From a virus: DNA of 64,000 nucleotides. Positions 2,376 through 55,900 of the stretch are shown here, piece by piece. The position numbers and the translations under genes are program-made. The number at the start of each line of letters is the position of its first letter. The first letter of the stretch is position 1. The notes beneath the pieces are model-generated. The model worked only from the letters and a program-made list of their open reading frames with translations. It did not search any database and had not been told where the DNA came from. The DNA is taken from positions 64,001-128,000 of IMG/VR virus record IMGVR_UViG_3300045988_176431; one strand, 5' to 3'.

Positions 2376-5300
2376 ATGGAAAAAAAGAGTAAAGAGTTTA
2401 ATATACTCATCTCAGTTCCAGAGATTACTAATAAAAAAGATATGAAGAAGTTTTTAAAACCGATTTATATCATAGAAGATTATCTGTTAGATGAATCTCG
2501 TTATGGAGATTTAGAACAGACTATCAGAAATCTTCTTCGTGGATGTTTTCATATTAAAGAATGTAGAGAATATCCAATTGAGTTTAAGTTTTATCGAAAA
2601 GATAAAGAAACACATAAGTTGCAGATTCGAAGATTTTTATATAATCTTTATATTTGGAAACCATTTTGCATGTTAAATGAATTTCATATTCTGGATGAAA
2701 ATTATATTCTTTCAGAAGAAGAAATTCCAAATGTAACAGAGTTTTTGAACGAAAAAATACTTACCACTCTTCAGGATTATAACATTGAACAGATTTTGAT
2801 TAACGAATCAATCTCTAATGTATTATATAGTCTCCGTTCAATTTCATTAGATTTTAGTGATATTATGAATCTTACTTTTAGTGATCATGATTTCATTGAG
2901 ATGTTAAATGATCCAGAATATCGAGAGATTATGGAATTAAAGATTCCTGAAGATATGCAACCAATTGAAGTAGAAAAACTACTTTCTCAGTATCAACAAA
3001 GGTTGGTGAGAAAGTTAAAACAAGATAAAAATAATCCAGTAGGAATCATGCTTAGGGCTGGAACTGGTGTAAAAGAAAAACAGTTAGCAGAGTATATGAT
3101 TGCTATGGGATTGAAGCCAACATTAACTGGTGAAGTTATGCCTATACCAATTGAAACATCATCTCTATTAGGAGGTTTAAATAGACCATCGTATCAGTAC
3201 ATTGATGCGATAGCAGCCCGTAAACCGTAAACATAATCTGCGGTTTTAAAACCTATCTAATTGCGGGGAACTGTCTATAATGATTATTTACTAACTTATG
3301 ATGGTGACATACATAAGGGCAAGGGGTAACTCCTAAGGTATAGTAAAAAGAATAATCATTGACACAATCGACGCAGCGAAGTATCTTATTTATTTCATAA
3401 TAAATCATTATAAAGGAGATGATTTAATATGAAAGAAACATGGAAAAAATTTATTTATAATGATATCGAAACAAAATATAGCGTTTCTAATTTAGGAAGA
3501 GTTAGAAATGATAATACTAATTATATATTAAAACCACATGTTCATAAAAAGACAAAATATCACATGATCCCACTTACAATAAATGGAAAAACTAAATTGT
3601 TTAGCTTATCTAGAATGGTGGCAACATTATTTATACCAAATCCAAATAATTATGAAGAAGTAGATCATGTTACTTGTGATAGATATAGAAATGAAGCTCA
3701 TAATCTTGAATGGGTTACTCATGAAGAAAACATGAGAAGAGCGTTAGTAAACGGACTCGTTTACAAAAACGATGGAAGTATGAGATATGTATTTCATAAT
3801 GAAAATGATATTAGAAAATTATGTGAATTATTATCAAATACATGTATCCCTGTTGATGAGTTGTCTAAAATAACGAACATTAGTCAAAATACTATAAATA
3901 AAATACGACTAGGTAAAAGATGGAGAAATATATCAAAGGATTATGATTTTTCTGAATATAATAAATTTATACAAAAAAATTATATTATATCTCATTCTGG
4001 AGAAAATAATTCACAATCAAAGTATCCAGATACATTGGTACATTCTATATGTCATGAACTAGAATTAAACAGAAAAACAATAAGTGAAATTGCAAAAATG
4101 TTTAATGTTCAGAAGAATTACGTATATGAATTAAGAATAGGAAAAGTTAGAACCTTGATTAGTTCTCAATATGATGTAAGCAATCATGATTTAACCGAGT
4201 TTGGATATCATCAAAAAGATTTAAACAAAATAAATGTTTTATTGAAAAAGGGCTATACTGTCCGTGAAATTATAAATAAATTAAATCTTCCAGATAACAA
4301 GAAAACTATAGCAATGATATATGGAAGAAAAAGAAATATGAAATAAATAAGATATGAGTTCAACGACTATCGAAAGTATAGTTATAAGAGAAATCTTATA
4401 ATGAATAAACGAGTAGAGTAGACCAGAATATCTGGGTGCACGAAATTGGTGCTTTGCGAAACGGTAGGTATTATAAATATGGTAATAGTATTTATAATAA
4501 AGATATAGTCTATACATTATGGTGACATAATGAATTATTAGTGATTATGAATAAGAAATCAATGGGAAATGCAGGCTACTTCGGGAAGAAAGTATCTGAA
4601 TTATGTAGGACTGTATCTCTTTCTAATAAGGTTTTAAATTGTAAAACAAAGCATTTGATTAAATATGAGATTAAAAATAAGAAATATCTTATGAAATTAA
4701 ATGGTAAGTTTTATAAGATGAATCCTGATGATGAAGATTATAAGGTACTACATTATAAAGATTACGATTTGGTTGGTAAAACTATTTATGCAAGAGGGGC
4801 ACAAACATGTGCTTGTGGACAGAATCTTATTTGTCCGACATGTCTTGGAAAAATTGCGGATTTGAACTGGGATTTGAAAGATGGTATTGGTGTATTTGAG
4901 TCTCAGGAATTATCAAAAGATATTGAACAGAAGATTCTTTCTGGTAAACATCTGTTAACAACAAAGTCAGAGAAGATTGAATTTAGCGATGAATTCTATC
5001 AGTATTTTTCAATTGCTGTTGGAGAGATTTCTCCTATCTTTGATAATATTGATAATATCAATGATTTGGCAATTTACGTTGTACCAGAAGAGATTGAGAA
5101 AGTAGAAGAATATGATGCAGATTCTACTTATAATACTTATATTTCATCTGGAAGATTCTTTGTAAGAAATCTTAAAACAAAGAAAGATATTGAAGTTAAG
5201 ATTTTGAAAAAGAAAGAATTGTATATTACAAGCAATGTCATTAAATCAATTCGTAATAATAATGGTGTAATTAAGTTTAAGGATTTGGAAGAAGATGCTC

Positions 5301-5791
5301 CAATCTTTGAAGTTATCATCTTGAATAATGAGTTAACAAAGCCACTATACGAGTTAATCTCTTTATTGGATTCTGAGAAAAAAGAAACAATTGAAGACAG
5401 TACAATTGATACGTTCTCACAAAGATTTTTGGATATTATCATTGAATCTGGAATTGGAGCGTCAATGGTTGCTGCTGAAATTGTAATGAATCGTCTAATA
5501 CGAGAAAGTGATAATGTGATGGATCGTCCAGATTTCTCACAAGAGAAAATGCCAGATTATAATATTTATACGATTCGAAAGATACTTAGAAACAATGAGA
5601 GTATTACAATTGGTTTGGGATTTGAAAACTTAAAAGCTCAGTTATTAAATCCAAATGTTTCTCAGAGAACAGCACCATCTTATATGGATGCTTATTTCAA
5701 AGAAGAACTTCCTACAGAAATTTTAAAGAAGTTTGAACAAGAGGAACCAAAGAAAAAGCAGATGGATTATTATCTAAATGCTTCACACTAG
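2376..5791 (+). CDS. multisubunit RNA polymerase beta'-like subunit, C-terminal half (exons 2376-3228 and 4542-5791)
   Basis: Exon 1 ends ...LRAGTGVKEKQLAEYMIAMGLKPTLTGEVMPIPIETSSLLGGLNRPSYQYIDAIAARKP. Exon 2 continues (L)IMNKKSMGNAGYFGKKV. The join is colinear with bacterial beta' SGARG..Q..QL.GMRGLMA.P.G.II..PI...F.EGL...EY.IS.[24 protein letters not shown]. Interrupted by intron 1. Confidence 0.8.
3229..4541 (+). mobile_element. group I intron 1 (1313 nt, carries an HNH endonuclease ORF)
   Basis: P1 is exon AAACCGT paired with IGS GCGGTTT, with a terminal U-G. Core elements AATTGCGGGG (P), CGACGCAGCG (Q), GAGTTCAACGACTATCG (R) and AAGATATAGTCTA (S) are present. The 3' splice site after G4541 is the only in-frame, stop-free solution for a phase-1 exon. 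Confidence 0.85.
3429..4346 (+). CDS. intron-encoded HNH homing endonuclease, I-HmuI-like (NUMOD4 + HNH + HTH repeats)
   Basis: YSVSNLGRVRN (NUMOD4-like), EVDHVTCDRYRNEAHNLEWVTHEENMRRA (HNH_3-like) and C-terminal repeats ..ISQNTINKIRLGKRW... AAAGGAG RBS. The ORF sits in the P6 loop of intron 1. Confidence 0.8.
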   Translation: MKETWKKFIYNDIETKYSVSNLGRVRNDNTNYILKPHVHKKTKYHMIPLTINGKTKLFSLSRMVATLFIPNPNNYEEVDHVTCDRYRNEAHNLEWVTHEENMRRALVNGLVYKNDGSMRYVFHNENDIRKLCELLSNTCIPVDELSKITNISQNTINKIRLGKRWRNISKDYDFSEYNKFIQKNYIISHSGENNSQSKYPDTLVHSICHELELNRKTISEIAKMFNVQKNYVYELRIGKVRTLISSQYDVSNHDLTEFGYHQKDLNKINVLLKKGYTVREIINKLNLPDNKKTIAMIYGRKRNMK

Positions 5792-5798
5792 AAAAGTT

Positions 5799-5838: not shown

Positions 5839-5875
5839 AATATTTTAAAAAAACAAAGAAAGGTAGGTAATAATT

Positions 5876-7939: not shown

Positions 7940-8022
7940 TTGATTATAGATAAAATCAATATCTTATATTCTATTTTTTTTATTACTTTTTTTTAATATT
8001 TTAAGAAATGAGGTATTTTTAT

Positions 8023-9261
8023 ATGTCATACAAAAACTTATTAATTGAAGAATTAAGAAATGACGAAGACAAAAAAGAAGATTTATTTAGTATCAATGCA
8101 GAGACAGATACTTATAAAACTGGTATTGCACCACTTGATTATGCTCTTGGTTATGTGGTACGTGTATATAATGATGATAATACCGTTAATGAAGAATATA
8201 AAGCACTCGGTATTAGTGGTGGTTGTAATGTAATGACGATTGGAAAATCATCAACAGCAAAGACATCCACTATGCTTTATATTGCCGCTAATATTGTAAG
8301 AAAATATGAAAGCGGATCAGTAATTCATTTTGACCTTGAACAGGCTATGAACTTATCAAGAGCAAGAACTATGACGAAATTTTCAATTGATGAAATTAAA
8401 GGTGGTAAATATATTTTAAGACAGTCTGATACATCCGTTGAAAAGATTAAACGTAGTATTATTAAATTATACAAAAAGAAAAAAGATAATCCAGAAACGT
8501 TTAAATATAACGCTGGAAAGAAAAATGAATTAGGGGAAGATATTGTTGTATATGAACCAACAGTAGTTCTTATTGATTCAATCCCTTCTATGACAGTAGA
8601 GATGAATGAAAATGATAAAAAAGATTTGAAGAAAATTGAAGAGATCTCATCTCAGACAGATCGAATGAGATTAACTGGTGAGATTGGAAGATTTTATACA
8701 GATCTTTTGCAATATATTAAATCAGTAAATATCATGACTATGTCAATCAACCATATTAAAGTGAATCCAAATATGGGAATTGTTAAGAGCCCTGCTGAAT
8801 TGTTATACTTGAAGCAAGATGAGGCACTTCCAGGCGGTAAAGCTCCAGTATATTTAGCACATATTCTTTTAAAATCCGTTGCGATTGGTAGTGCTAAATT
8901 TAATTTGGAAGATGATGGATTTGATGGTTTCGGCATTGCCTTACAGATTATTAAATCCAGATCAAATCAAGCAGGTCAAACAGTAAATCTTATTTATGAT
9001 AAGGTACGTGGTATTGATCCACTTAGAACATGTCTTTTGTATGCAAAAGAACAGGGATTATTAAGTGGTAATAAGAATGCTACATATTTTACAGATGATA
9101 AAGAGCATAAATTCCCTATGAGAACCGTAAATGAATATTTTAGGGAACACAGAGAAATGTACAAGATTATGTATGACCACATTATTCCGTTACTTGATAA
9201 AAGACTTTCTTCTGTAGCAGAAGAGGAATTAGAAGTTGTTGATGAGTTAATGGATTACTAA
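8023..9261 (+). CDS. RecA/UvsX-like recombinase
   Basis: Walker A-like TIGKSSTAKTST and Walker B-like TVVLIDSIPSM. The size and layout are RecA-like. ATG 8023 lies 8 nt after GAGGT; track start 8008 overlaps the RBS. Confidence 0.65.
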   Translation: MSYKNLLIEELRNDEDKKEDLFSINAETDTYKTGIAPLDYALGYVVRVYNDDNTVNEEYKALGISGGCNVMTIGKSSTAKTSTMLYIAANIVRKYESGSVIHFDLEQAMNLSRARTMTKFSIDEIKGGKYILRQSDTSVEKIKRSIIKLYKKKKDNPETFKYNAGKKNELGEDIVVYEPTVVLIDSIPSMTVEMNENDKKDLKKIEEISSQTDRMRLTGEIGRFYTDLLQYIKSVNIMTMSINHIKVNPNMGIVKSPAELLYLKQDEALPGGKAPVYLAHILLKSVAIGSAKFNLEDDGFDGFGIALQIIKSRSNQAGQTVNLIYDKVRGIDPLRTCLLYAKEQGLLSGNKNATYFTDDKEHKFPMRTVNEYFREHREMYKIMYDHIIPLLDKRLSSVAEEELEVVDELMDY

Positions 9262-10103: not shown

Positions 10104-10118
10104 TTGGAGGATATAGTT

Positions 10119-12771
10119 TTGCCAGAAATACAAAAATATAACTTAAAAGATGAGTTAAAGGCTGCTGATGAGGAATATAAAAATTCAACAGCCCTTGTTG
10201 GTATGTCGGCATTAACTGAACCAAGATATACAAACTCAACAAGAACTCAAATGTTTACAAGTCATTTGAAACAGTTTTTGAATCTCATTCAACCGGAATT
10301 TCCAAGGGTGTTTACAAATGCAGAAAACGTAGTAGGAAAACATTCTTCTGCATATTACAAAACTAAAAATGACTTAGAAATTATTGAAAAGATTGAAAAG
10401 TATGGAGACATCTTAGAAGTGCCTTACATATATCATTTATTTGTATTTGACAAAAAGAAAAAACGTTATCGTGTTATTACACGAAAAGAAGTAGAAGAAA
10501 ATCTGACAGAGGATTTTGGTTATCATATGAATAATGAAGAGATTGACAGTTTTAAAGAAGGAGATATCATCCCAAAAGGAGATATTCTTTATAAGTCGAA
10601 TTCATATGATGAATCTATGAATTATCGTTATGGAGTAAATGCAACAGTACAGTATGTATTAAATCCATATACATCAGAAGATGCTGCTGATGTATCAGAA
10701 TCTTTTGCAAAGAAAATGACAACTTTGAAAGTGAAGAAAATTCCTTGGGGATTAAATAACAATGATATTCCTCTTAATTTATTTGGAGATGATGATGAAT
10801 ATAAGCCATATCCAGATATTGGAGAACCAGCATGTGGAATCTTTGGATGTTCAAGACCTCAATATAATGATCAGTTGTTGTTTGATTTTAAAGATTCAAA
10901 TTTAAGAACGATTAAAGATTCAGACCGTCCAGTATCATATCCAGGAAAAGGATTTATTGTCGATTATGAGATTTATTGTAATAATCCAGACATTGAAGAG
11001 AATTCTTTTAATAGTCAGATTATGACGTATTTAAAATCTCAGACAAAATACTGGAAAAAGATTTATAAAACAACAAAGAAGATTATTAATTCTGGTTATG
11101 ATTATGACAGAGAAATTGATTATCTTTATAAACGTGCAGATGAGTTTTTAGATGAAGATAAAAAATGGAAAGACGATTCTGTATTTGGTAACTTAAAAAT
11201 TGTAGCAACGATTGCAGAATATATTCCATTAAGGAAGGGGCATAAATTTACTGGTTAACATAACAGCCAGTCATATTAGGCGACTAATATGTTACAAACT
11301 CCATGAATTGCGGGGAACTCTCGTTAGGTTCTAGTTACTAAACTAAGATAGTGATATACTTAGTGGCAAAGGGTAACTCCTAAGGTATAGTAAAAAGACT
11401 AGAAATAGAGACAATCGACGCAGGGAAGTATCTTAATAATATAAGATATGACTTCAACGACTATCGAAAGTATAGGTTAAGAGAAATACTTAACTGAATA
11501 AACGAGTAGAGTAGACCAGAAGTCTGGGTGCACGAAATTGGTGCTTTACGAAGTGTGGAGCTCTTTATATTTGGTGACAGAATATAAAGATGAAGATATA
11601 GTCTAATCTATACTGAGAAGTATAGCTGTATAAAAACAGATATAAGTGTAACGAACTTATATGAATAATCATGCGTTATGGAAACAAATCTGTTGTTTCA
11701 CGAGTATTACCCGATAAAGATATGCCTCATACAAAAGATGGAAAAACTGTTGACGTTCGATTAAACTTATTAGCCATTATCAACCGTACAACAGGGTTTG
11801 TTCCTCATGAGTTATTTATTAACTTCATTTGTGATAGAGCAAGGGAGCAAATGAAAAAAGCAACTACGTTGAAAGAAAAAGAAAATATACTCTTTTCAAT
11901 CATTAAAGATTTGAATGAAAAACAGTATAAAAGTATGTATGCTTATTATAAAGATTTGAAAGATACAAAATTGAAAAAAGAATACATTGATGATTGTATT
12001 TATGAAGGTATCTTTATTCATCAGAATCCTGTTTCTGAAGATGAACCAATTCTTTATAAATTACAAAAGATGACAAAGAAATATAATTGGTTGGAACCTT
12101 ATCAGTTATATGTAACAATCGATGGTCACGAGATTCCTCAGATGATAAAAACTTACATGGGTGAGATGTACATGATTCGATTGAAACAAACTGACCAAAA
12201 GAATTTCTCGGTACGAAATACAGGAGCAATTAATACAAAAGAATTACCAGAACGAAGCTATAAGAATCGAAATCATCAGGATTTATATTCAGATAAAGCA
12301 ATTCGTTTTGGTGAGTATGAAACTCTTGCTATTATGACAGGTCTTTCAGAAGAAGAACTTGCTCTTTTCCATGCCTATTATCGTACTTCTATTAAAGGTA
12401 GAAAAGATGTGATTTCTCATATCTTTGAACCAGAAAAGAAATTAAGTGAAATTGATTCTTCACTTACAAATCGAACAGCAGAACTTTTTAATGTTATCTT
12501 TAAAGCATTATCAAATGAAATTGAATTTATTGATAGTGATAATATCGTAAAATCAATGGATAATATTCATGTTCAAGAATACACATATCATGGACAAACA
12601 TATTTCATGACAGAATATGAATTTTATCTATTTAAATTAGAAGATGAATTAAAAGAGAAGATTCTGTTAGAAACTCCTGGTTTAACAGATGAAGAATTAG
12701 ATGAGAGATTACATGAAGAATTAAAAGCATCTAAGAGAATTATGGGTGAACCTGTAAAAGATATGAAATAA
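10119..12771 (+). CDS. multisubunit RNA polymerase beta-like subunit, C-terminal half (exons 10119-11255 and 11674-12771)
   Basis: The splice joins ...RKGHKFTG|RYGNKSVVSRVLPDKDMPHTKDGKTVDVRLNLLAIINR. This equals bacterial beta K.aGRHGNKGVvS...MP...dG...D..LNPLGVPSRMN. TTG 10119 lies 8 nt after GGAGG. Confidence 0.85.
11256..11673 (+). mobile_element. group I intron 2 (418 nt, ORF-less, extended P1-P2 variant)
   Basis: P1 is exon ACTGGT paired with IGS GCCAGT, with a terminal U-G. The same P/Q/R/S core is present. The 3' splice site after G11673 gives an exact G|RYGNK junction. Confidence 0.85.
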
Positions 12772-18818: not shown

Positions 18819-21800
18819 TTGATTAAATATCTTAAAAATTATGCTTCTGAATTTGAAAGAGATTTAAATATTCCTCTTATGAACAAAGAAGCAGATAGAC
18901 CATTAGTTGAATATGTAATTGATTCATGGAAATCATTACAGATTCTTGATGGTATCGAATTTCTTGATTATGAGTATACAGAAAAAGAATCTGATATTGA
19001 GATTAATAAGTATATTTATAAACGTGAGAAAGGAAAACGCAAAAACGAGAAATTTGATTACAAATTTGTGGATGATAGTAGATGTGGACTTCTTACTGTC
19101 CGTATGAAATTATCTGCAATTGAAAAAGATTTCAAAACAGGTGATACGTATTTAAAAGAAAAAATTATTAAAAAGAGTATGTTGATTCCTTTACAGGATG
19201 ACAAAGGACTATTCTGTATCAAAGGAAAAAATTACTATTTGATTTAGTTTGATAGATCAAACAAAACTCTTCTAATTGCGGGGAACTCTCGTTAGGTCTT
19301 AACTACTAAACTAAGATGGTGACATACTTAGTGACAAGGGGTAACTCCTAAGGTATAGTAAAAAGGTTAAGAATAGAGACAATCGACGCAGCGAAGTATC
19401 TTATAAATAATAAGGTATAAGATATGAGTTCAACGACTATCGAAAGGATAGCATAAGAGAAATACTTATGTGAATAACTGAGTAGAGTAGACTAGTATAT
19501 ATTATACTAGGTGTACGAAATTGGTACTTTACGAAATGGAGAGCATATTATATTTGGTAATAGAATATAATGTGAAGATATAGTCTAATCCTCATGGATA
19601 ACATGATGGTGTAAATGTATCAGATGGTAGAAAAATCTACCTATACGTCAAATAATTCTGTTATTTTGAAATCTTTAATGCCTTTTATGATAAAAAGACA
19701 AATAACAAAACAGGAAGATATTCATGAAAATGAATATCAGATTCCTTATTATACCATTGATTTGTTTCGAAAAGATATTCCGATTATGCTTCTTTATGCA
19801 TCCAAAGGAATGAATCGTGCGTTACAATATGCTATTCAATCCTATCCTTATGTAGCAATTAACTTTGTTACAAAACCAAAAGAAACGGACAAAAAGCATA
19901 TTTATTTCCAGATATCTTCTAAGTTGTACTTAAAAGTACATAAGAAGTTATTTGAAAAGTTTCCATATATCCAATCCGTAGTTGGTGGTATTTTACATAT
20001 CTCAACGAATCGATTGACATTGGATAAATTGGATAATACAGATATCTGGATTAAGAAATTAAGTAATAATAACATTGAAAAAGGAAAGAATCTTTTAGAT
20101 TCTTTAAAACGTCTTTTAGATGTAACTACAAAGAAAATATTAAAAACAGATATATCAAACAAATTAGATGTACTTGCTGTTATTCGTTGGATGAGTCAAG
20201 ATTTCAATGAATTACGAATGAAAGATAATATGAATATTGAAAATAAGCGATTACGATGTAATGAATACATTGCATCTTTACTGACACAAGAATTTAGTAA
20301 GAAACTTAATCGTATTATGTCTCTAGGTGGAAAAGCAACCATTGATAATCTTAGAGAAATTTTCAAATTTCCAGGCGATAGAATTAGAGTGTCGCCGTTA
20401 AACCTATCTAATTGCGGGAAACTCTCGTTATGTTCTAGTTACTAAACTAAGATGGTGACATACTTAGTGGCAAAGGGTAACTCCTAAGGTATAGTAAAAA
20501 GACTAGAAATAGAGACAATCGACGCAGCGAAGTATCTTATAAGTATAAGATATGAGTTCAACGACTATCGAAAGGATAGCATAAGAGAAATACTTATGTG
20601 AATAACTGAGTAGAGTAGACTAGTATATATAAATACTAGGTGTACGAAATTTGTACTTTACGAAACGGTAGGCTCTTTATATTTGGTAATAGAATATAAA
20701 GATGAAGATATAGTCTAAACTTTATGGATAACATAGAGAATGATTCTAATTCAGAAGATGCATAGTAGTGGTGTATTCCGATTTGATGATAACATCAACG
20801 ATATGGATTTCTTTTCAAGGTTCAAATTCACGAATAAAGGACCTCACTCTGCAGGACAAAAGAATGGAAATAGTGTTGGTGTTAAGTACAGGGGTATGGT
20901 TGAATGCTCCTGTAAAACTCTTCTAATTGCGGGGAACTCTCGTTAAGTCTTAACTACTAACTTATGATAGTAATATACATAAGGGCAAGGGGTAACTCCT
21001 AAGGTATAGTAAAAAGGTTAAGAATAGAGACAATCGACGCAGCGAAGTATCTTCTATATATAAAATGGAAAGGAGGCAAAATCAAATGAAAAAAGTAATT
21101 GATTGTAAAAGAGTGATGCATGATAATATAAAATTAAATTATTTTATATTTACTGATGGAAGTATATTTAATGCTACAACTAATCATGAATTAAAACAAT
21201 ATAAAGATAAAGATGGATATCCTACAGTTTGTTTATCCAATAAAGGAAAACATTGGACAATTCATGTTCATCGATTAGTTGCGTTAACATTTATTCCAAA
21301 TCCATTAAATAAACCAGAAGTTAATCATATAGATGGTAATAAATCAAATAATGATATTAGTAATTTAGAATGGGTTACTGGAAGTGAAAATGTAAGACAC
21401 GCCTATCTCAATGGTTTACATGATAATGTAGCGATTGGTGAGAAACATGGTATGAATAAATATACTGAAAAACAAATTAAACATGTTTGTCAATTATTAG
21501 AAGAAAATTCTAATACACTCAATGAAATTGCTGAACTAACAAATGTTCCAAAATCAACAATTCATGATATTATATCAGAAAAATACTGGACTCATATTTC
21601 TAAAAAATATAAAATATCAAATTTTGATAAAAAATCTATTAGACGGTTAGATTCTCAAATGAAAAATGAAATGAGATATCTAATAAGAAAAGGATATCGT
21701 CAATGTGATATTTTAAGACATTTTAATTTAGAGACTAGTAAAAAGAATTATGGAATGATTAAAAGATATTATTATAAAATAAAAGAAGATACAAGTTCAT

Positions 21801-22381
21801 CGACTATCGAAAGTATAGGTTAAGAGAAATACTTAACTGAATAAACGAGTAGAGTAGACTGATCAATCAGGTGCACGAAATTGGTGCTTTGCGAAACGGA
21901 GAGCATATTATATTTGGTAATAGAATATAATATGAAGATATAGTCAGGTTATACAGTGATGTGTAAGTTTTAGATTCACCCATCAATGATTGGATATATT
22001 GATATGACTGTTTGCGGTAATTCTGACCCAGGCACATCGGGGCTTCTCTCGCCCTTTAGTAAGTTAAAAGGATTATCTTTTAATGATGATATGGAGCCAG
22101 ATAATTTTAAGTTTGAGTTCATAAAAGAGGTTAAGAAGATTATGGATGAAGAAGGAATTGATTATATTGATCTTGACTTTGAGAAGAAAGAAGATTACTA
22201 TTCCTTTGTCAATACTCTTCATGACTTTAATGTGGATAACATTCATGTCAATTATATTGAACGAGAAAAGGAATATGATAAAGTTATTCAAGAAGAGGAA
22301 GAAGATTTAGAAGAAACTTTATCATTCCAAAATAATAAACCAAAGAAGGATGATAAGAAAAAAGAAGCAAAGAAGAAATAA
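18819..22381 (+). CDS. multisubunit RNA polymerase beta-like subunit, N-terminal half (exons 18819-19244, 19618-20379, 20743-20895 and 21974-22381)
   Basis: Spliced junctions are ..FCIKGKNYYLI|YQMVEKS.., ..FKFPGD|ILIQKMHSSGVFRFDDNINDMDFFSRFKFTNKGPHSAGQKNGNSVGVKYRG and |IHPSMIGYIDMTVCGNSDPGTSGLL. These align with beta [63 protein letters not shown]. TTG start after AAAGGGGG. Confidence 0.8.
19245..19617 (+). mobile_element. group I intron 3 (373 nt, ORF-less)
   Basis: P1 is TTTGATT paired with GATCAAA, with a terminal U-G. The 3' splice site after G19617 is forced, because an in-frame TAA lies immediately upstream. Confidence 0.85.
20380..20742 (+). mobile_element. group I intron 4 (363 nt, ORF-less)
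   Basis: P1 is GGCGAT paired with GTCGCC. The 3' splice site after G20742 follows the P9 hairpin CTTTATG-gataa-CATAGAG. The alternative at 20736 is less likely. Confidence 0.8.
20896..21973 (+). mobile_element. group I intron 5 (1078 nt, carries an HNH endonuclease ORF)
   Basis: P1 is AGGGGT paired with GCTCCT. The 3' splice site after TAG (G21973) is forced by an in-frame stop. The junction KYRG|IHPS equals VRDVHPS. Confidence 0.85.
21086..21823 (+). CDS. intron-encoded HNH homing endonuclease, I-HmuI-like
   Basis: HRLVALTFIPNPLNKPEVNHIDGNKSNNDISNLEWVTGSENVRHA (HNH_3-like) plus an HTH, IAELTNVPKSTIHDIISEKYW. ATG 21086 follows GGAAAGGAGG. The last codons (..SSSTIESIG) run into the intron R element. 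Confidence 0.8.
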   Translation: MKKVIDCKRVMHDNIKLNYFIFTDGSIFNATTNHELKQYKDKDGYPTVCLSNKGKHWTIHVHRLVALTFIPNPLNKPEVNHIDGNKSNNDISNLEWVTGSENVRHAYLNGLHDNVAIGEKHGMNKYTEKQIKHVCQLLEENSNTLNEIAELTNVPKSTIHDIISEKYWTHISKKYKISNFDKKSIRRLDSQMKNEMRYLIRKGYRQCDILRHFNLETSKKNYGMIKRYYYKIKEDTSSSTIESIG

Positions 22382-25599: not shown

Positions 25600-25640
25600 T
25601 TATAAGAATACTTATGTAAAAAAGAAAGGATGTGAAAACT

Positions 25641-33668: not shown

Positions 33669-33803
33669 GTAAGTTTACTTTACTTACTTAACACAAATAT
33701 ATTATATAAATATGATATTTAATTATACACATAGTTTTCTCTTATCTATCTTTTTATGTTAGATTTGACAAGTTTTTAAGTAAATTTGAAAGGGGAATTG
33801 ATA

Positions 33804-36800
33804 ATGAGTCAAGAGAATTTATATTTAGAAGAATATACAAAAGAAATGACTGACTTTTTAAAGAAATCAAATCCTAATATTGATAAAAAGGAAATAAAGA
33901 AAATCGTAAAGAAAACGATAAAAGAAAGATTACAAGACCCAGAGGTTATTCTGGATAATAACTATACACACGAAACAAGAAAAACTCATTTAACATCAGT
34001 TCTTCATTGGGCTATGTTAAAGAATCCTATTATTGCAGGAAATGGTACATTTTATAAACAACATAATGTAGCCAGAAATCCAAATTCAGAAATGGTAGAT
34101 GACTTCTTGGATGATAGAAAGAAATTAAAAAAAGCAATGTTTGCAGTTGATGATGAAGCAAGTCATGCTTATAAAGATTTAGACTTAAAGCAAGGAAATA
34201 AAAAACGATTAGCAAATTCTTATTATGGTGGGTCAGGAGCAAAAACTTCAGCATTCTATTCAAAATGGAGTGGACCTGCTACAACAAAAAGTGCTCAATC
34301 AGTTATCTCAACAACAGAAACAGTATTTGAAGCATTTCTTGTGGATAATTTTATTTTTATTGATTTTAATGAATGTGTCACATGGATTGATACTGTACTT
34401 TCTGAAGATTATGAATTAGATGATTGGGTAGAAAGAATCAGTTTGGAAGATTGTCATAAACGACTTTCTAATAAGATTCTTGGTGTTACAGATGATATGA
34501 GTGAACTTCTCATGAAATATCTTTCATCTTTAACCGAAGAGGATTGGACACATCTTTATTATAAAAATAATTTAATAGAATTTACAAGAAGACATGAGAA
34601 AGTAAGAAAACTTCATGATTCTATCTTTAGTTCGATTCGTAATGATTATTATGAATTTTCAGTAAATAAAGATGGTGGATTTGAAAATGAATCCGATATT
34701 GCAAAAATCCCAACAGAAATGAGGGATGATATTTTAGGTGATAAAAAACCGGGAAAAGCATGGAATAAATTTGTATCTGTGCAAAAATTCTATGATCCAA
34801 ACAACGTTCCAGACACTATTAAAGAATACTTAGAAGAACTTTCAAATATTTATATGAAATATATATACGTGAGATTTCTTCATTTAGATAAAATCTATCG
34901 ATTAAAGAATTTTAATCGTGACGTTGTTACAGTTATTGATACAGATTCAAACATCTTATCATTAGATACATGGATGAAATTCTGTCAGACAGAATTAATG
35001 ACAAGTGATTATGGAAGAGAATATTTTGACAATGTATATATTGCAATTAATTCTATTACATACATCATTACATCAGTCGTTACTGATATTCTTTTATATT
35101 ATGGAGAATGCTCGAATGTAGAAGAAAGTCATCGACCAAGATATAATATGAAGAATGAATTCTTCTTTAGTAAATTAATTATTGCAAAAACAAAGAAACG
35201 ATATTTATCTCAGATATTACTTCGAGAAGGAAATCGACTTAAAAAACCGAAAACAGATGTTAAGGGTTTAACGTGTAAATTGTCAACGTTACATACAAGA
35301 CCCAATACTAAGCGATTAGTATTTAAAAACAAGGTGAATTGCGGGGAACTCTCGTTATGTTCTAACTACTAAACTAAGATGGTAACATACTTAGTGGCAA
35401 TGGGTAACTCCTAAGGTATAGTAAAAAGGTTAGAAATAGAGACAATTCGCAACCAAGTTATTTATTAAAAAGATATATTTATATATTATACTTCTAAAGG
35501 AAGGTGATTATAATGAATAATAACGAAAAAATAAATCAAAAAGATATGAAGGAAATAATTAAGAAGATAAATTCTTCTATATGTTTTATTGATGAAAAAT
35601 TTAAGCAATTATATATTGATGAAGAATATATACCATATATAATTTCATCAACTGGTAGAATATTTAGTATTAATTATATGCATCAAAAAGGAAATGTACA
35701 TGAATTAAAAAGTAGAACAGATAAAGATGGATATAAATTAATATTAATACATTATAATCATAAAAATTATGGTTATCATATACACCGTTTAGTTGCTTTA
35801 ACATTTATCCCTATTCCTATTAAATATAGAAAGCAAGGATATAGTAGTAATGATTTACAAGTGAATCATAAAGATGGAAATAAATCTATAAATTGTGATT
35901 GGAATTTAGAATGGTTGACTTGTAAAGAAAATATTCATCATGCTTGGAAAAACAATTTAGCACATTCTATTGGTATATATAATGGAAATAGTGTATACTC
36001 TAATGAAGATATAGAAACAGTTTGTAAATTATTAGAATCAGACTATTCTATTAAACAAATTAGCAAAAAAATAAATGTTCCATATTACATAATATCTTTA
36101 GTATTAAATAAGAAAAATTGGCTACATATAAGTAATAATTATGACTTTAGTAATTATTCATATGGAAAGAAAAAAAGAAAAGATGTTATAAATGTGTGTA
36201 AACTGTTAGAGAAAGGTGAATATAGTATAAAAGAAATAAGTAAAATTTGCAATGTAAAAACTTCATTTGTAAGTGATATTTCATCTGGAAAAACATTTAA
36301 ATCAATATCTAAAGATTTTAATATAAATATATCTTGTAATAAATAAAAGGTTCAACGACTATCGAAAGGATAGCATAAGAGAAATACTTATGTGAATAAC
36401 CGAGTAGAGTAGACCAGAAGTCTGGGTGCACGAAATTTGTGCTTTACAAAGTGCCTTGCATCTTCTATTTGGTAACAGAATATGAAGATGATGATATAGT
36501 CTATTCTCAATTGTAAAATTGAGGAGTTATTTATAACTCAGTATAACTTAACGAATTATACTAAATAAAAAGTTGACTTTAAGAAATCAGTTACATCAGA
36601 AACAGCATCGAAGTATTATATGAATATTATTAAAGAATATCTTCTTGAACCGGAAACTCCGTTATTAAAAGAAATGATTAATGAACTGCATGAATTTAAA
36701 AAACGTATCAAGAAATCTATTGAAGATGGCGAACGGATTTATTTACCAAATGCAAATGCAAAAGAACTTGGTGCTTATAAAGACCCAAGTACATCACAAG

Positions 36801-37231
36801 GTGTTCGTGGTGTATTAACATGGAATATGTGTGAGCCGGATAAAATGATTGAATTTCCTGCTAAAGTAAGTTTATTAAAAATGAACTTAGAAAATGAGGA
36901 ATCAATAGAAGATATGAAAGATAAATTCCCAAATCAATACAATGCAATTAAAGAGGGAATTTTTAATGATAAAACAGGTATTTTTATTAAAGAAAAGAAA
37001 GATAAAAAAACAGGTAAAAAAGAATTAAAGAAAACTGGTATGAAAGTGTTAGCAATCCCATCAAGTGAAACAATACCTGATTGGGCATTACCATATATCG
37101 ATTATAATACTATGGTAAATAATATATTAGCACCGTTTAAATCTGTTTTGGAAATCTTTAATCTTCCAGGAGTAGAAGAAGGAAAGACTGGAAGAAAATC
37201 AACAGGACTAAGTAATATTATAAAATTATAA
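33804..37231 (+). CDS. family B DNA polymerase, polymerase-domain part (exons 33804-35268 and 36573-37231)
   Basis: KKRLANSYYGGSG (motif B, Kx3NSxYG), VTVIDTDSN (motif C, DTDS) and KTKKRYLS (KKRY). The junction is ..KPKTDVKG-F-DFKKSVTSE. ATG 33804 lies 8 nt after GAAAGGGG. No exonuclease motifs or motif A lie upstream. Confidence 0.8.
35480..35489 (+). promoter_or_regulatory. TATATATTAT motif, copy e (inside intron 6, upstream of its endonuclease ORF)
   Basis: Exact 10-mer 24 nt upstream of ATG 35513. Confidence 0.3.
35513..36346 (+). CDS. intron-encoded HNH homing endonuclease, I-HmuI-like
   Basis: YIISSTGRIFS (NUMOD4-like), HRLVALTFIPIP...QVNHKDGNKSINCDWNLEWLTCKENIHHA, and two HTH repeats (ISKKINVPYYIISLVLNKKNW and ISKICNVKTSFVSDISSGKTF). 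AAAGGAAGGTG RBS. Confidence 0.8.
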   Translation: MNNNEKINQKDMKEIIKKINSSICFIDEKFKQLYIDEEYIPYIISSTGRIFSINYMHQKGNVHELKSRTDKDGYKLILIHYNHKNYGYHIHRLVALTFIPIPIKYRKQGYSSNDLQVNHKDGNKSINCDWNLEWLTCKENIHHAWKNNLAHSIGIYNGNSVYSNEDIETVCKLLESDYSIKQISKKINVPYYIISLVLNKKNWLHISNNYDFSNYSYGKKKRKDVINVCKLLEKGEYSIKEISKICNVKTSFVSDISSGKTFKSISKDFNINISCNK

Positions 37232-43782: not shown

Positions 43783-46700
43783 ATGAAATATTTGCCAGTT
43801 AAAAAATCTAATCCAGTAGAGGAAATTGATCGCTCAAAATTAAAGAGCAAAATCAATATCTGGAAACCAAAGAAATCTGAGATTATAGTGGAACAAGATG
43901 GAAATATTTTTGTCTGTCATTTTGACAAGATTTTCAATCAACCAAATCTCAAACCCTTAACTAAATTTATTATTAAAAAATCTAGTTATATCAACCAATT
44001 ACCAGTCATTACAAGGTATACAAACTTTTTCATGAATTGTTATGATACAGAGAATGACTTAGCAATGGCTTATTTGAAGATTAAGTATGCTCTTGATAAA
44101 GAGAGAGTATTTAATGAAACAAATACTTCTGCATTAATTGATATGATATATGAGATTCTTTTTACACCAAGGCTTTGTGAAAAGATTACTCGTATGGTAG
44201 AAGAAAATTACTTAGATGATATCGAAAAAGGGGATGGAAAGAAATATAAAAAGAATAAAGACTACTTAGAAAGTCTTGAATTCACCAATGAACATATTAA
44301 GATTCTTCTTAGAATCTCATTTGGTATTAAAATCATGTCACCGATTCTTTTTCATTATCTTACGATTAATAATATGAATAAGTTGGATAAAGACAGTGAT
44401 TTGATTTACAAGTTCTATGAAAGACTGTTTCCTTTGTTCTCCGGAAACGTCAATATGTTTAATAAGCTCTTTGTTTATTGTAAAACAAAAGTACTGGATG
44501 CATCTGCACATAACAGTACAATCTTTGAACAAAGAGAAATTTTTGGTGTAGATAAGTATTCAGTTATTGATAAATTTGTGAGAAAAGTAATTATCTCAGA
44601 AAACATGGTTAAAGTATTTGATCATGTAAAACCTCTCTAATTGCGGGGAACTCTCGTTAGGTCTTAACTACTAAACTAAGATAGTGATATACTTAGTGGC
44701 AAGGGGTAACTCCTAAGGTATAGTAAAAAGGTTAAGAATAGAGACAATCGACGCAGGGAAGTATCTCTTATGAGATATGGCTTCATCGACTAGGGAAAGA
44801 CTAATTTATATTAATTAGAATCGAGTAGGTCCAATTATAGGACGAAATGTAGGTGAGTATATATAATATATACAAAAATCCGAAACGGGAGGCATTGATA
44901 TATTTAGTAATAGAATATATTAATGAAGATATAGTCAGTGTAATATAAAAACATGAAATACTTGTTCAATGAACACTGGGATAGACGTTTCATGTTCCAG
45001 TATAAAAACCTCTCTAATTGCGGGGAACTGTCTATAATGATTATTTACTAAACTAAGATGGTGACATACTTAGTGGCAAGGGGTAACTCCTAAGGTATAG
45101 TAAAAAGAATAATCATTGACACAATCGACGCAGCGAAGTATCTTATATGAGATATGAGTTCAACGACTATCGAAAGTATAATTATAAGAGAAATCTTATA
45201 ATGAATAAACGAGTAGAGTAGACTGATTTAATCAGGTGCATGAAATTGATGCTTTACGAAACGGGAGGTATTGATATATTTGGTAATAGAATATATCAAT
45301 AAAGATATAGTCTAATTAAAATAGGTGAAACAGAAAAAATACAAGGAGAACATTGTTGGATCAATATTAGGTTCAACCAAAACCTCTCTAATTGCGGGGA
45401 ACTATCTATAATTAATAACTACTAAACTAAGATAGTGATATACTTAGTGGCAAAGGGTAACTCCTAAGGTATAGTAAAAAGGTTATTAATTGATACAATC
45501 GACGCAGCGAAGTATCTCTTATGAGATATGAGTTCAACGACTAGGGAAAGCTAGACAACCATATTGATAGAAATATCTAAAAGAATATAATATTCTGATG
45601 GTTTGATGTGAGTAGGTCCAATGATAGGACGAAATGTAGGTGAGTATATATAATATATACAAAAATCCAAAACGGGAGGTATTGATATATTTGGTAATAG
45701 AATATATCAATAAAGATATAGTCTACATTGAAAAATGTGTTAATAAAACGATTAATTTAATAGTCGCAATGATATAAAGAAATTTATATCTGGACAAACC
45801 ATCCTAATTGCGGGGAACTCTCGTTAGGTCTTAACTACTAAACTAAGATAGTGATATACTTAGTGGCAAGGGGTAACTCCTAAGGTATAGTAAAAAGGTT
45901 AAGAATAGAGACAATCGACGCAGCGAATATGCTTTGAAATAAATAATAACATGTAAAGAAATAGGAGATAGATTAGGAATGACAAGAAATGCTGTTTGGA
46001 ATATTAAACAAAAAATAAATTAAACAAAATCAAAGCATAATGTTCAACGACTATCGAAAGTATAGGTTAAGAGAAATACTTAACTGAATAAACGAGTAGA
46101 GTAGACTGATTTAATCAGGTGCACGAAATTGGTGCTTTACGAAACGGATGGCGTATTATATTTGGTAACAGAATATAATACGAAGATATAGTCTAACCTA
46201 TGTAGTGATATATGGTATAAGTGTATTAAATTTCAGATGAATTATTTTCTTAAGGAGCAGTATGAGAAAACAATGACCGAGATTTCTAACACAAAAAATA
46301 GTGATGGATTATCCGGTCAAGATAAAATGGAAATGAATTTGACTAAGATTGATGAAGGTATCACAACTCTTAGTGAGTTCAATATTAAGAATTGTATTGA
46401 ACGTATTCAAAGAGAGATTGATATTCCAATCTCAGATGAAGAAATTCAATATTATAGGGACCATCATATTCCTAGCCCTATTCAGATTCAATTGGTATAT
46501 TCGTACTTTGCAGAATATTTTACGGATTATCGTGATTTGAACCTTTTAACAAGAAGAGATTATCTTCATTTATTACTTTTATTAAAGAAGAAACTCTTAA
46601 TTGAGGCTGGATATGATGAGAAAGAAAATGAATTTACAGATGCGATTCTTCCATATATTCTAACAGGAAATTTGGAAGAAAAAGTTTCTACTCGAATGAT

Positions 46701-46941
46701 TCGAAACAACAAGTTTATTTCAAAGATTGAAACGAATTATATGTATCAACAGTTAGTAGAAAAGAAGTATAAGCATCTGCAAGAATTAAAGAAAGACTAC
46801 ATATTACAAGTATTATCTTCGATTATCAATACGAATTTTACTTATGTAGTTTATGAGGAACCTGAAATGTTAGGAAAACCAATTGTTTATAATGAAGATA
46901 AAATCTCGGATGAACTCTTGTTTTTCTTAAAATGTATTTAA
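43783..46941 (+). CDS. hypothetical protein interrupted by four tandem group I introns (exons 43783-44610, 44956-44982, about 45325-45361, about 45738-45752, and about 46224/46237-46941)
   Basis: The ORF 43783-44640 runs into the intron P element, and the ORF ending at 46941 resumes after intron 10. The first three 5' splice sites are well supported. The last two micro-exon boundaries and their reading phase could not be resolved by hand. The start may be TTG 43792. Confidence 0.5.
44611..44955 (+). mobile_element. group I intron 7 (345 nt, ORF-less, type-B 3' half)
   Basis: P1 is CATGGTT paired with GATCATG. The 3' splice site after ..AACATG gives the in-frame 27-nt exon KYLFNEHWD. Confidence 0.75.
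44983..45324 (+). mobile_element. group I intron 8 (about 342 nt, ORF-less, type-A 3' half)
   Basis: P1 is CTGGGAT paired with GTTCCAG (7 bp, terminal U-G). The 3' end is provisional. Confidence 0.7.
45362..45737 (+). mobile_element. group I intron 9 (about 376 nt, ORF-less, type-B 3' half with an extra insertion)
   Basis: P1 is GTTGGAT paired with GTTCAAC (7 bp, terminal U-G). The 3' end is provisional. Confidence 0.7.
45753..46236 (+). mobile_element. group I intron 10 (about 484 nt, extended P1-P2 variant, degenerate ORF remnant in P6)
   Basis: The core P/Q/R/S elements are intact. P1 is only CGAT paired with GTCG, placed by analogy with introns 2 and 6. Both ends are provisional. A mini-ORF lies at 45979-46023. 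Confidence 0.6.
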
Positions 46942-49377: not shown

Positions 49378-49409
49378 ATGAAATATTGATTCATATTGAT
49401 TCATAAAGT

Positions 49410-49419
49410 TATATATTAT
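49410..49419 (+). promoter_or_regulatory. TATATATTAT motif, copy g
   Basis: Exact 10-mer followed by the hairpin 49433-49467 (AAAATGAGTAGAAAT/ATTTCTACTCATTTT), then the RBS of 49501. Confidence 0.35.
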
Positions 49420-49500
49420 TTATATGAGTGATAAAATGAGTAGAAATTTAATATTTCTACTCATTTTCATATGAATAAAGAAAGGATGATGTAAAAATTT

Positions 49501-50208: not shown

Positions 50209-50225
50209 AGAAAGGAGATTATATT

Positions 50226-52853: not shown

Positions 52854-52902
52854 ATGTGAAGTCAAATATCTATAATTGGATATTTGACTTCACATTATTT
52901 TA
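52854..52902 (+). terminator. hairpin or terminator upstream of the beta'-N gene
   Basis: 17-bp stem ATGTGAAGTCAAATATC / GATATTTGACTTCACAT followed by TATTTT. Confidence 0.55.
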
Positions 52903-52925
52903 AAATTTTATTTAATAAAAGGAGT

Positions 52926-55900
52926 GTGATTTTTGTTTTGGGTAAACAAATTGTAAGAATCAATCGACTCAGTTGGGATATTTTATTTTATGATGATATG
53001 ATAAATGGTGATGGTTTTATCATATCAGAACCTGCTGAAGTAAAAATCGATCGAGAAAGAAAAAAGTCTCTTTATGGTCCACAATCTCCACTCTATGGTA
53101 CAACGTATTCAGATGAGCAGGCATTTATTGAACGTTATCGTTGTGAGTGTGGAAATTTTAAAGGAAGACAATTTGCAGGGGAAGTATGCCCCATTTGTAA
53201 AACAAAAATTGAAAGTAAAGGAAGTAATGTAAAAACAACAGGATGGATTTGTACCGGAAATGCAAGATTTATTAATCCATTCTTTTATCAGCTTCTTGTA
53301 AAAGCGATTGGAAAGAAAATCTTTCCAGATATTATTGATTGTAAACAACGTGTCGATACAGATGGACACCGAAGTCAATATGTACCAGAAGATACAGAAC
53401 CACTTTCTCCTTATTCTGGATTTGGTATTGAAGAATTCATGAACCAATATGAAAATATTCTTACTTATTTTCAGACAGTAAGAAAACAAAAATACGATGA
53501 TCTTCAATATCTAAAAGAGAACAAATCTAAAGTATTTGCTTCTCATATTCCGATTTATACGACAATGTTACGTCCGCAAAGTGTCACAAGTGATACTTTT
53601 TATTTTAATGGTATTGATCGAGAAATCAATCCTCTCTTTAATCTTTCAGAAAGTATTAAAGATTGTAATCCAATTGAGCGTCCATTTATCTTACAAAGAA
53701 TACAAGAGCGTGTAAACAACATCTTTGAATTTAACTTTGATATGATTAATGGTAAAGAAGGATGGATTCGAGGAAAACTATTAGGTGGCTCGTTAGTGCG
53801 TTATAATTTGACGAGCTTTATAAACTCATCTAATTGCGGGGAACTCTCGTTAAGTCTTAACTACTAAACTAAGATGGTAACATACTTAGTGGCAAGGGGT
53901 AACTCCTAAGGTATAGTAAAAAGGTTAAGAATAGAGACAATCGACGCATCGAAGTATCTTAATATTATTATATATTTATAAGAAAGGTGGTGAGATAATG
54001 ACGTCACATATTATAAAATTTAACAACATGGACAGTGATTATGTCATTTATGAAGATTGCACAATTATTAATATAAAAACTAATCATATTATGAAACATC
54101 GAATAAGTAAAAGTACAGGACGAGTGTATGTTCGTTTAACTAATAATAAAAAAAGAAAAGAATATAGATTATCAAGATTAATGGCTACATATTTTGTAGA
54201 AAATCCTGATCCAAAAAATAAAGTTGATGTTCATCATAAAGATAAAAATGTATTAAATAATGTACCAAGTAATTTGCAATGGGTTACAAAAGAAGAACAT
54301 TATTTGATACATAAAGGTGATAAAAATCATCCATTTTCTAGTGGTGAAAATCATAGTGGTGCTATATTAACTAATGATCAAGTACATGAAATATGTAAAT
54401 TGATTCAAGATAACATTATGTCTCAAAATGATATTGCGAGAAAATATAAAGTAATGCCACATGTTATTCATGAGATTCGTTTAAAACATAATTGGAATGA
54501 AATAACAAAATATTACGATTTTTCAAAATATTCGTATGGGAATAATTTTCTAAAAGATGATAAAGTAAAAGAAATTTGTTATCTGATTGAATCAAATAAG
54601 TATACATTGATGGAAATATCAAAAAAATCAAAAGTTACTTATTCTACAATTCTTGATATTTATCATAAAAAACGATATAAAAGACTAAGTGATAATTATG
54701 ATTTTGATAGATTCAATAAGTTAACAAGATATAGCAAAGGACTTAAGAAAAAAATAAATTTTTTAATTAATGAAGGAAAATCAAATAATGAAATTAAAAA
54801 TATATTAAAATTAGATAATTGTGCAAAAACGAATACTCTATTGTGTAGAGAAAGAAAGAAATCAAATCAATAAAAAAATAATATTAAGATATGAGTTCAA
54901 CGACTATCGAAAGTATAGCATAAGAGAAATACTTATGTGAATAAACGAGTAGAGTAGACTAGTATATATTATACTAGGTGCATGAAAATTGATGCTTTAC
55001 GAAACGGTGAGTGTATTATATTTGGTAACAGAATATAATATAATGATATAGTCTAAACTTCTATGGATAACATAGAGAATATTTGAAATTATACGGCTCG
55101 TAACGTAATTATTCCAGATCCATCTTTACATGATGGGGAAATTGATGTATCTTATCATACATTTAGAATCTTATTTAAATATAAGATTATTTATTATATG
55201 ATGAAGATTAACGACATACAGTTATCAAAAGCATATCATAAATGGAAGAATAGTTATAAGTTTAATCAACACATTTATGAAATTATGTTGTACATCTTAA
55301 AGAAAGAAAAACCAAGAATATTAATCAATCGAAATCCGACACTAATAGAAGTTTGGTGTCATTAAACTCTTCTAATTGCGGGGAACTCTCGTTAAGTCTT
55401 AACTACTAAACTAAGATGGTAACATACTTAGTGGCAAAGGGTAACTCCTAAGGTATAGTAAAAATGTTAAGAATAGAGACAATCGACGCAGCGAAGTATC
55501 TTCAATATATAAAAATACTATAGTAATTGAGAGGTGATAAATATTGCCAAAGAAAAGAAAGAAATTAAGTGAATTTCTTTTATCATATTATAAATTAATA
55601 GAAGAAAGTGATGAAAAAGAATTATGGAAAGATATTAATTTAGGAGACTTCCCAATATACCAAATAAGTAATCATGGTAGAGTTCGAAGGAAAGATAGTA
55701 AATTCATAATTAATCCTTTTCATTCTTATCGAAAAGATAATAATGGTAACTTTAGATATGATAGACCAACTTATCTCAGAGTTCAATTATATTATTACAC
55801 TAATGGGGTAAGAATGAAAAAACATATGGAAATAAGTAGGCTTGTTGCAATAAATTTTATACCTATACCAAAAATATATACTGATAAGGGATTAGATGAG

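Follow-up and report, generated by a model that had tools for sequence, protein, structure and literature searches.

How does one phage genome come to hold a dozen similar group I introns, each matched to a different site? The question is raised by a 64,000-nucleotide (nt) stretch of viral DNA (positions 64,001 to 128,000 of IMG/VR record IMGVR_UViG_3300045988_176431; hereafter the window), where 12 introns interrupt five genes for multisubunit RNA polymerase (RNAP) subunits and one gene for a family B DNA polymerase. We label these genes A (RNAP β′ C-part), B (β C-part), C (β N-part), D (DNA polymerase), E (a further RNAP subunit) and F (β′ N-part). The window, with a GC content of 28%, reads as a single phage genome with nearly all long open reading frames (ORFs) on the + strand. 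Its RNAP subunits are 27–36% identical in amino acid sequence to those of AR9/PBS1/MarsHill-like jumbo phages, and its source is an uncultured AR9/PBS1-like jumbo phage. A preliminary description inferred that one intron had recently proliferated by reverse splicing into new mRNA sites, with only its internal guide sequence (IGS) changing. We consider another answer likely, namely that guides stay bound to their sites while the ribozyme bodies behind them evolve in concert, and that the introns spread by homing and recombination at the level of DNA.

The introns share a core motif, AATTGCGGGG. Its 12 occurrences, every one of them on the + strand, comprise 11 exact copies and one that deviates at a single position. 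The Rfam group I model RF00028 matches five of the 12 copies, and two exceed its gathering score. We set the 3′ ends by two criteria, an in-frame join and a G preceding exon bases complementary to the P1 loop (the P10 pairing); both chose the identical G. At all 12 sites a T opposite a G occupies position −1, and every intron ends in G (omega-G). Excision in silico yields six uninterrupted ORFs. None of the 12 junctions requires a gap when aligned to homologues that lack the introns, taken from IMG/VR relatives for genes C and E, from phiR1-37, AR9 and BpSp for genes A, B and F, and from PALS_2 for gene D. Even in gene E, where three micro-exons lie between four near-identical introns, the spliced peptide aligns without gaps to uninterrupted homologues. 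Judged by sequence, the 12 elements are true group I introns, predicted to be self-splicing, and belong to the phage family of the Twort/K/SPO1 type.

The exon/IGS pairs given for the 12 introns in the preliminary description are all present, each string once and at its proper place. When local segments were folded, each P1 hairpin was both the minimum free energy and the centroid structure (z-scores −1.5 to −4.4), with helices of 4–9 base pairs (bp). The pairs are real, but introns 5, 7, 8 and 9 require one added G·U wobble. The IGS does not always lie immediately before the core, as a P2 hairpin of 20–26 nt intervenes in introns 2, 6 and 10. In copies without P2, an unbiased hairpin search in a related genome found that the IGS ends 10–14 nt from the core. 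A matched IGS is the defining feature of a working group I intron; anyone who takes the elements for introns should therefore expect the pairing that headed the preliminary description.

That description had overlooked P10. In 11 of the 12 copies, the P1 loop pairs with the first 5–11 bases of the 3′ exon (11 bp in intron 12). P10 mostly abuts P1 directly; the exception is intron 6, whose P10 is the weakest. [quoted passage not shown] Intron 10, which had been singled out as weak, does have a P1 of only 4 bp, but because a 9-bp P10 supplements it, this intron is well guided.

We compared guides with alternative targets. The six host genes contain 3,561 T-ending sites, of which 0.03–1.5% (5.8% for intron 10) attain a P1 helix of an intron's own length. 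We then scored 22 guides, 12 from the window and 10 from the close relative described below, against their 22 spliced junctions, counting both P1 and P10. The own junction ranked first for all 22 guides, with a mean free energy of −16.1 kcal/mol compared to −4.75 ± 2.3 kcal/mol off the diagonal. Among 11,199 20-nt segments of the six genes, the own junction was the best target for guides 1, 2, 3, 4, 5, 7, 10 and 12 and a near tie for guide 11 (−22.5 versus −22.6 kcal/mol). For guides 6, 8 and 9, other segments outscored the own junction through bulged pairings in this unconstrained duplex scan, so that its statistic is not uniform across guides.

In silico, the guide sets both splice sites. 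We infer that the guides probably also prevent the skipping of micro-exons between tandem introns, as long and distinct P1/P10 guides would stop near-identical neighbours from skipping exons of 13–37 nt; suppression of exon skipping between similar tandem introns by distinct P1/P10 elements is on record (PMC10136302). These 5′ guides would constitute the first of two modules, bound to the site and consisting of the P1 loop (which guides P10) and the IGS, sometimes with a P2 hairpin. As previously proposed, the site-specific part of the intron is limited to this region.

The second module would be a ribozyme body of ~320 nt, with or without an I-HmuI-like HNH gene in its P6 loop. Described earlier as nearly identical, the bodies have a mean identity of 87% in their 5′ halves (74–97%) and 75% in their 3′ halves (56–94%). 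The RNAalifold consensus core contains 76 pairs, 36 of them compensatory (5 in P3), with 1.8% non-canonical cells; P7 (GACTAT/ATAGTC), which RNAalifold did not draw, was read by eye. Compensatory differences between copies fall in P3, P5a, P5b, P6, P7.1, P7.2 and P8, and the strands of P3 covary. The extra hairpins between the P7 5′ strand and P3′ come in two alternative versions, and the 12 copies are themselves mosaics. With the P10 guide, the presence of P2, P3, P5a, P5b, P7.1/7.2, P9 and the ORFs all varying, it is not the case that only the IGS has changed. The earlier view that the copies are splicing-competent is well supported in silico by P1 helices with U·G, omega-G, matching P10, covariation in the core and restored ORFs at 12 of 12 sites. 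An unrelated, type-B P7.1/P7.2 region occupies positions 44783–44928 in intron 7, 45534–45715 in intron 9 and 56258–56441 in intron 12.

Five introns (1, 5, 6, 11 and 12) contain HNH/NUMOD4/HTH ORFs, all in the P6 loop, and seven are without an endonuclease ORF. Domain matches are to PF13392, PF07463 and HTH, with phrog_59, and the HNH ORF resembles I-HmuI (PDB 1u3e; E = 9e-12). The ORFs are predicted to encode HNH homing endonucleases of the I-HmuI/I-TwoI type. Homing had been discounted on the premise of one endonuclease specificity; the five proteins are mutually 26–36% identical, which would mean five specificities, not one. In the P6 loop of intron 10, a short ORF at 45979–46023 (MTRNAVWNIKQKIN) lies within an insert of ~90 nt that is missing from the orthologous intron of the close relative; it resembles an HTH tail left over from the decay of an HNH endonuclease gene.

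The close relative, IMGVR_UViG_3300045988_176405 (249 kb), was retrieved with an exact 25-nt core pattern. In collections that exclude the window's own genome, this pattern matched one IMG/VR genome and one 1.4-kb metagenome contig, and no match occurred among GTDB genomes. The exons of the relative are 97.6% identical to those of the window. Comparison with a related phage, earlier suggested as a source of empty sites, did reveal eight sites that are empty in the window, but all 12 window introns are present in the relative as well, at identical sites and with identical guides (12 of 12). The five ORF-bearing introns of the window are ORF-less in the relative (358–486 nt), yet the relative has more introns. 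At least 8 further members of the family occupy sites empty in the window and at least 2 more (xL6 and xL8) lie outside the window region, bringing the copy number to at least 22 compared to 12. An additional intron in one stretch of the relative (L001), with an unconvincing P1, was left out of the statistics.

Behind the identical guides, the bodies have been exchanged. The 3′ half of intron 12 in the relative is 59.5% identical to its orthologue in the window but 88–92% identical to window intron 1 and to introns 1 and 4 of the relative, and the body at site 12 is type A in the relative and type B in the window. Likewise, the 3′ half of the relative's intron 4 is 100% identical to that of its own intron 1 and 83% identical to that of window intron 4. 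Among 5′ halves, intron 1 of the relative is 99.2% identical to window intron 8, introns 11 and 12 are 98% identical to window intron 5, and intron 7 is 100% identical to an extra intron, xE1. The 3′ tail of the relative's intron 10 (P9 to omega-G) is like that of window intron 3 and unlike that of its own orthologue. This comparison of orthologues with paralogues shows that bodies recombine behind fixed guides within the time of 2.4% host-gene divergence. Because orthologues with identical guides carry paralogue-swapped bodies, similarity between bodies is silent on the date at which a site was colonised.

The eight polymorphic sites also have an excess of synonymous differences in their exon flanks. 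Exon mismatches between window and relative amount to 2.4% overall and 2.1% at shared sites but rise to 10.9% within 12 nt of the polymorphic sites (binomial p = 1e-8). On inspection, the mismatches are spaced at third-codon intervals; those of the intron-bearing alleles create the U at −1 or improve P1/P10 pairing. Co-conversion from a diverged donor would produce flanks of this kind; co-adaptation between exon and guide would fit them too, as would an empty allele that has escaped an endonuclease. They are not what insertion into resident sequence would give. Presence/absence polymorphism together with diverged exon flanks, the pattern by which we recognise homing or recombination, was found over the eight sites. 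The empty sites xE1 and xF3 are the best targets of their own guides among the 11,199 segments. Two side observations concern the relative's extra introns. The intron at xG (stretch L005, 3550–4750) carries a P4 variant (AACTGCGGG), and its host gene apparently gains one codon (TAC), unless the 3′ splice site is misplaced. The guides at xA2 (L008, 11941–), xE1 (L007, 8391–) and xF3 (L002, 4103–), otherwise different, share the start TRACTKAAA, which may be a trace of common guide descent; in xF3 this part is dispensable for P10.

The account that we consider likely combines these results. Bodies would be alike because paralogous copies within one genome recombine often, by gene conversion, while the guides remain tied to their sites. 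Introns and their ORFs would be gained or lost by DNA-level homing or by homologous recombination between co-infecting relatives, as the divergence of the flanks suggests. Several points weigh against this account. Concerted evolution explains the similarity of the bodies, not the origin of 22 different guides of 13–18 nt. The comparison is between two close genomes, in which gains and losses are unpolarised. The flanks of xE1, the only exception to flank divergence, are unchanged, and a recent gain in situ or a precise loss is possible there. Finally, no introns were found in gene E of two relatives (L016 and L017; 52% amino acid identity). Together with the polymorphism of 8 of 20 sites between near-identical genomes, these intron-free homologues show that the introns of gene E do not date from ancient times in all lineages.

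Three other accounts address how new sites are reached. In the first, which acts at the DNA level, HNH nickases of relaxed or evolving specificity, either free-standing or encoded in introns, would cleave new sites, and illegitimate or microhomology-mediated repair would copy the intron in; guide and synonymous exon positions would adapt afterwards, selection being strong in essential genes. In its favour, one family is represented by five diverged HNH genes, the sites lie in highly conserved catalytic motifs typical of homing endonuclease targets, the synonymous differences of occupied alleles improve pairing, and trans-homing of defunct introns is known (PMC2790892). However, with a foreign guide, a fresh copy would be unable to splice out of an essential gene, so that an intermediate is difficult to envisage, and apart from the possible xG codon there are no target duplications or extra exon fragments. 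We judge such ectopic transposition unlikely.

Reverse splicing, the mechanism favoured in the preliminary description, makes a prediction about the sites. In reverse splicing, an existing IGS locates 4–6 complementary nucleotides (PMC3984707, PMC1299323). Since that IGS must pair with the target, the process predicts shared 5′-exon bases, not new IGSs, and the earlier argument from changed IGSs runs backwards. The 22 sites share no 5′-exon motif. No pair of sites shares its last 5 exon nt, compared to 2.0 expected; 10 pairs share the last 4 nt, compared to 6.5 expected (P = 0.15), which lies below a composition-matched null. Junctions are no more alike than those at random T sites (6.26 versus 6.61 identities per 20 nt). 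We found no common target motif or families of sites, with cross-compatible P1 pairings also at chance given a preference for G/C at −4 and −3. This preference (G/C at −4 in 18 of 22 sites, against a background of 30%; G at −3 in 13 of 22; T at −3 never) plausibly reflects the need for a stable P1 in AT-rich DNA, and a P1-limited process such as reverse splicing might also give it. The confinement of site specificity to the 5′ guide, 5′ body halves that are 74–97% identical, the seven ORF-less copies and the unchanged xE1 flanks are further points in its favour, and a long continuous complement of the spliced junction suits target recognition at the RNA level. However, 13–18 nt would have to change simultaneously, many further helices differ, paralogue exchange accounts for the likeness of the bodies, and polymorphic introns have diverged exon flanks. 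A scan of the 10 largest unannotated ORFs in the window, which holds about a quarter of the genome, revealed no reverse transcriptase. On balance, recent proliferation by reverse splicing is improbable.

Because the guide is nearly an inverted copy of its target junction, a templated origin of guides is conceivable. The introns would then be a plug-and-play family, in which a freely recombining universal body is joined to a guide cassette generated for each new site, and the guide could arise by copying the opposite strand of the target during break repair or through RNA-level integration guided by P1 and P10. The sole hints are the common TRACTKAAA start and the unchanged flanks of xE1, and we hold this account to be quite improbable; if true, it would give group I introns a route to arbitrary sites without a shared target motif. 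That the elements are chance hairpins in AT-rich DNA or decayed, non-splicing relics, as the two of 12 copies reaching the Rfam gathering score and the 4-bp P1 of intron 10 might suggest, is effectively refuted by the fixed distance of the IGS from the core, own junctions that rank top among 11,199 segments, 12 of 12 codon-exact junctions in essential host genes and extensive compensatory covariation in the core.

Returning to site-bound guides with exchanged bodies, a more distant relative bears on their age. In IMGVR_UViG_3300037249_001000 (stretch L013, 5258–5658; 55% amino acid identity in gene C), the family is represented by one intron, which lies precisely at site 4. There, IGS GTCCCC stands opposite exon GGGGAT, compared to GTCGCC opposite GGCGAT in the window, and the P10 guide is likewise re-matched to the 3′ exon of that phage. 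Because both IGS and P10 are re-matched, guide and synonymous exon positions co-evolve at a fixed site, and associations between introns and sites appear to be old. No introns were found in gene C of two further relatives (L011 and L012; 45% identity), and a search with the gene F protein for more relatives recovered only the close one. The J6/7–P7 motif occurs in more than 118 IMG/VR stretches; this, together with similarity to introns of phages K, Twort and SPO1, points to a widespread phage intron family. By megablast, GenBank phages share only ~125 nt of intron similarity. In two other IMG/VR viral contigs (L079 and L065), 3–4 copies of the J6/7–P7 motif lie within a few kb. In contig L010 (Ga0326514_10299199), an HNH ORF (189–963) is upstream of the ribozyme core (1030–1330), outside the P6 loop.

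Among known systems, the introns most resemble those of Staphylococcus phages Twort (orf142) and K and the SPO1 type (subgroup IA2; HNH nickases I-TwoI, I-HmuI, I-KsaIII), to whose extra hairpins between P7 and P3′ those of the window may correspond. Their 5′ halves are 72–82% identical in nucleotide sequence to introns of K/Twort-like Staphylococcus and SPO1-like Bacillus phages. Twort likewise has several similar introns in one gene with a very short exon between them (23 nt; PMC10136302). Whereas Twort orf142 has three introns, the family numbers 12 copies over the 64 kb of the window and at least 22 in the relative. Its micro-exons are as short as 13 nt, or 10 nt in the relative, its carrier is an AR9-like jumbo phage, and the exchange of bodies between paralogues is documented by comparison of orthologues. 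In AR9/PBS1/MarsHill-like jumbo phages, the RNAP and DNA polymerase gene classes are also split by introns, with an intron content that differs from one close relative to another (bioRxiv 10.1101/2020.12.14.422802); gyrase genes are split in these phages as well. However, the homologous AR9 and BpSp genes that we compared are uninterrupted at the window sites. In the accessible literature on AR9-like phages, we did not find P1/P10 guide anatomy or paralogue exchange described.

Bryk and Belfort reportedly described in 1990 the shuffling of domains between the T4 td, nrdB and sunY introns through recombination in the core, giving chimeric introns. That is said to have been a laboratory observation on three introns, whereas here shuffling appears to be a pervasive natural process among 12–22 copies. 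The Jug (jumbo gut) phages, with a mean of 18.5 group I introns per genome, resemble our phage in their intron-loaded essential genes and many HNH endonucleases, and metatranscriptomes support the splicing of their introns (PMC12880540). They differ in clade and host and in introns that average ~206 nt, and one recombining family with site-bound guides is not claimed for them (PMC12880540). Ribosomal DNA group I introns attributed to reverse splicing also comprise related introns at different sites, some ORF-less, but their heterologous sites share 4–8 nt of 5′ exon (PMC1299323), a diagnostic feature that the 22 sites compared here lack. Intron-rich RNAP genes in AR9-like phages and loads of ~18 introns per genome in other huge phages have already been described; the present introns offer an unusually clear record of exchange between paralogues.

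The value of the locus lies in the system as a whole: fixed guides, swapped bodies, endonuclease ORFs in one genome only, eight polymorphic sites and micro-exons of 10–13 nt. One consequence is that similarity of ribozyme cores cannot serve to infer recent transposition. The two genomes offer natural material for asking how group I introns gain access to new sites, what keeps the exons between near-identical tandem introns from being skipped, and whether ORF-less introns shield polymerase genes against a competing phage's endonucleases, as happens in the PhiPA3 case (PMC11620839). The features are listed in Table 1.

Table 1. Interrupted genes, introns, intron ORFs, micro-exons and empty intron sites, in window coordinates. 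A slash within a peptide or between two positions marks the splice junction or the empty site.
Feature	Position	Strand	Last 5′-exon base	Guide	Remarks
Gene A, RNAP β′ C-part	2376..5791	+			intron 1
Intron 1	3229..4541	+	3228	3229-3246: P10 guide AAACATAATCT + IGS GCGGTTT	gene A; junction ARKP/LIMN gap-free vs phiR1-37 g102
Intron 1 ORF	3429-4346	+			HNH, in P6 loop
Empty site xA2	4576..4577	+			occupied in relative
Empty site xG	8828..8829	+			in ORF 8008..9261; intron of relative has frame-broken HNH ORF
Gene B, RNAP β C-part	10104..12771	+			GRYGNK motif; intron 2
Intron 2	11256..11673	+	11255	11256-11271, then P2 hairpin	gene B at GRYGNK motif; ORF-less; junction FTG/RYGNK gap-free vs AR9 g089
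Gene C, RNAP β N-part	18819..22381	+			introns 3, 4, 5
Intron 3	19245..19617	+	19244	19245-19261	gene C; ORF-less; Rfam RF00028 59.9 bits; junction YYLI/YQMV gap-free vs IMG/VR relative L012
Intron 4	20380..20742	+	20379	20380-20396	gene C; ORF-less; Rfam 57.1 bits
Empty site xC1	20832..20833	+			G at −1 in window vs T in intron-bearing allele
Intron 5	20896..21973	+	20895	20896-20911	gene C at R/IHPS
Intron 5 ORF	21065-21823	+			HNH, I-HmuI-like
Empty sites xC2, xC3	22027/22028, 22037/22038	+			10-nt exon between the two introns in relative
Gene D, divergent family B DNA polymerase (PF20286)	33786..37231	+			intron 6
Intron 6	35269..36572	+	35268	IGS 35299-35303, then P2	gene D; extended P1 with internal hairpin; junction DVKG/FDFKK gap-free vs PALS_2
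Intron 6 ORF	35504-36346	+			HNH
Gene E, further RNAP subunit, phrog_25005	43783..46941	+			introns 7, 8, 9, 10
Intron 7	44611..44955	+	44610	44611-44626	gene E; ORF-less; type-B P7.1/7.2 domain
Micro-exon (27 nt)	44956-44982				gene E, before intron 8
Intron 8	44983..45324	+	44982	44983-45000	gene E; ORF-less
Micro-exon (37 nt)	45325-45361				gene E, before intron 9
Intron 9	45362..45739	+	45361	45362-45377	gene E; ORF-less; type-B domain
Micro-exon (13 nt)	45740-45752				gene E, before intron 10
Intron 10	45753..46223	+	45752		gene E; P2 hairpin; 4-bp P1 (CGAT/GTCG), 9-bp P10
Empty site xE1	46242..46243	+			flanks identical to intron-bearing allele
Empty site xE2	46323..46324	+			occupied in relative
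Gene F, RNAP β′ N-part	52884..56762	+			NRNPTL + NADFDGD motifs; introns 11, 12
Intron 11	53795..55085	+	53794	53795-53816	gene F; junction GGS/LNYTARN gap-free vs BpSp
Intron 11 ORF	53998-54873	+			HNH
Intron 12	55344..56479	+	55343	55344-55360	gene F at NRNPT/L, upstream of NADFDGD; type-B domain
Intron 12 ORF	55544-56239	+			HNH/NUMOD4
Empty site xF3	56551..56552	+			occupied in relative

Several other features of the window fall outside the intron-bearing genes. No tRNA genes were found in its 64 kb. Polyphosphate kinase PPK1 is encoded at 25632–27632, with strong E-values for all four Pfam domains, and a DEAD/ResIII helicase at 29765–31207. The protein encoded at 40824–42932 has a Cpn60/TCP-1-like N-terminal part, and an 857-amino acid protein (14938–17511) has a weak SMC_N-like match. 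A 3.1-kb segment with three ORFs lacking a Pfam match (48192–51334) is absent from the 97.6%-identical relative, and the alignment blocks that flank it overlap by ~13 nt at the joint.

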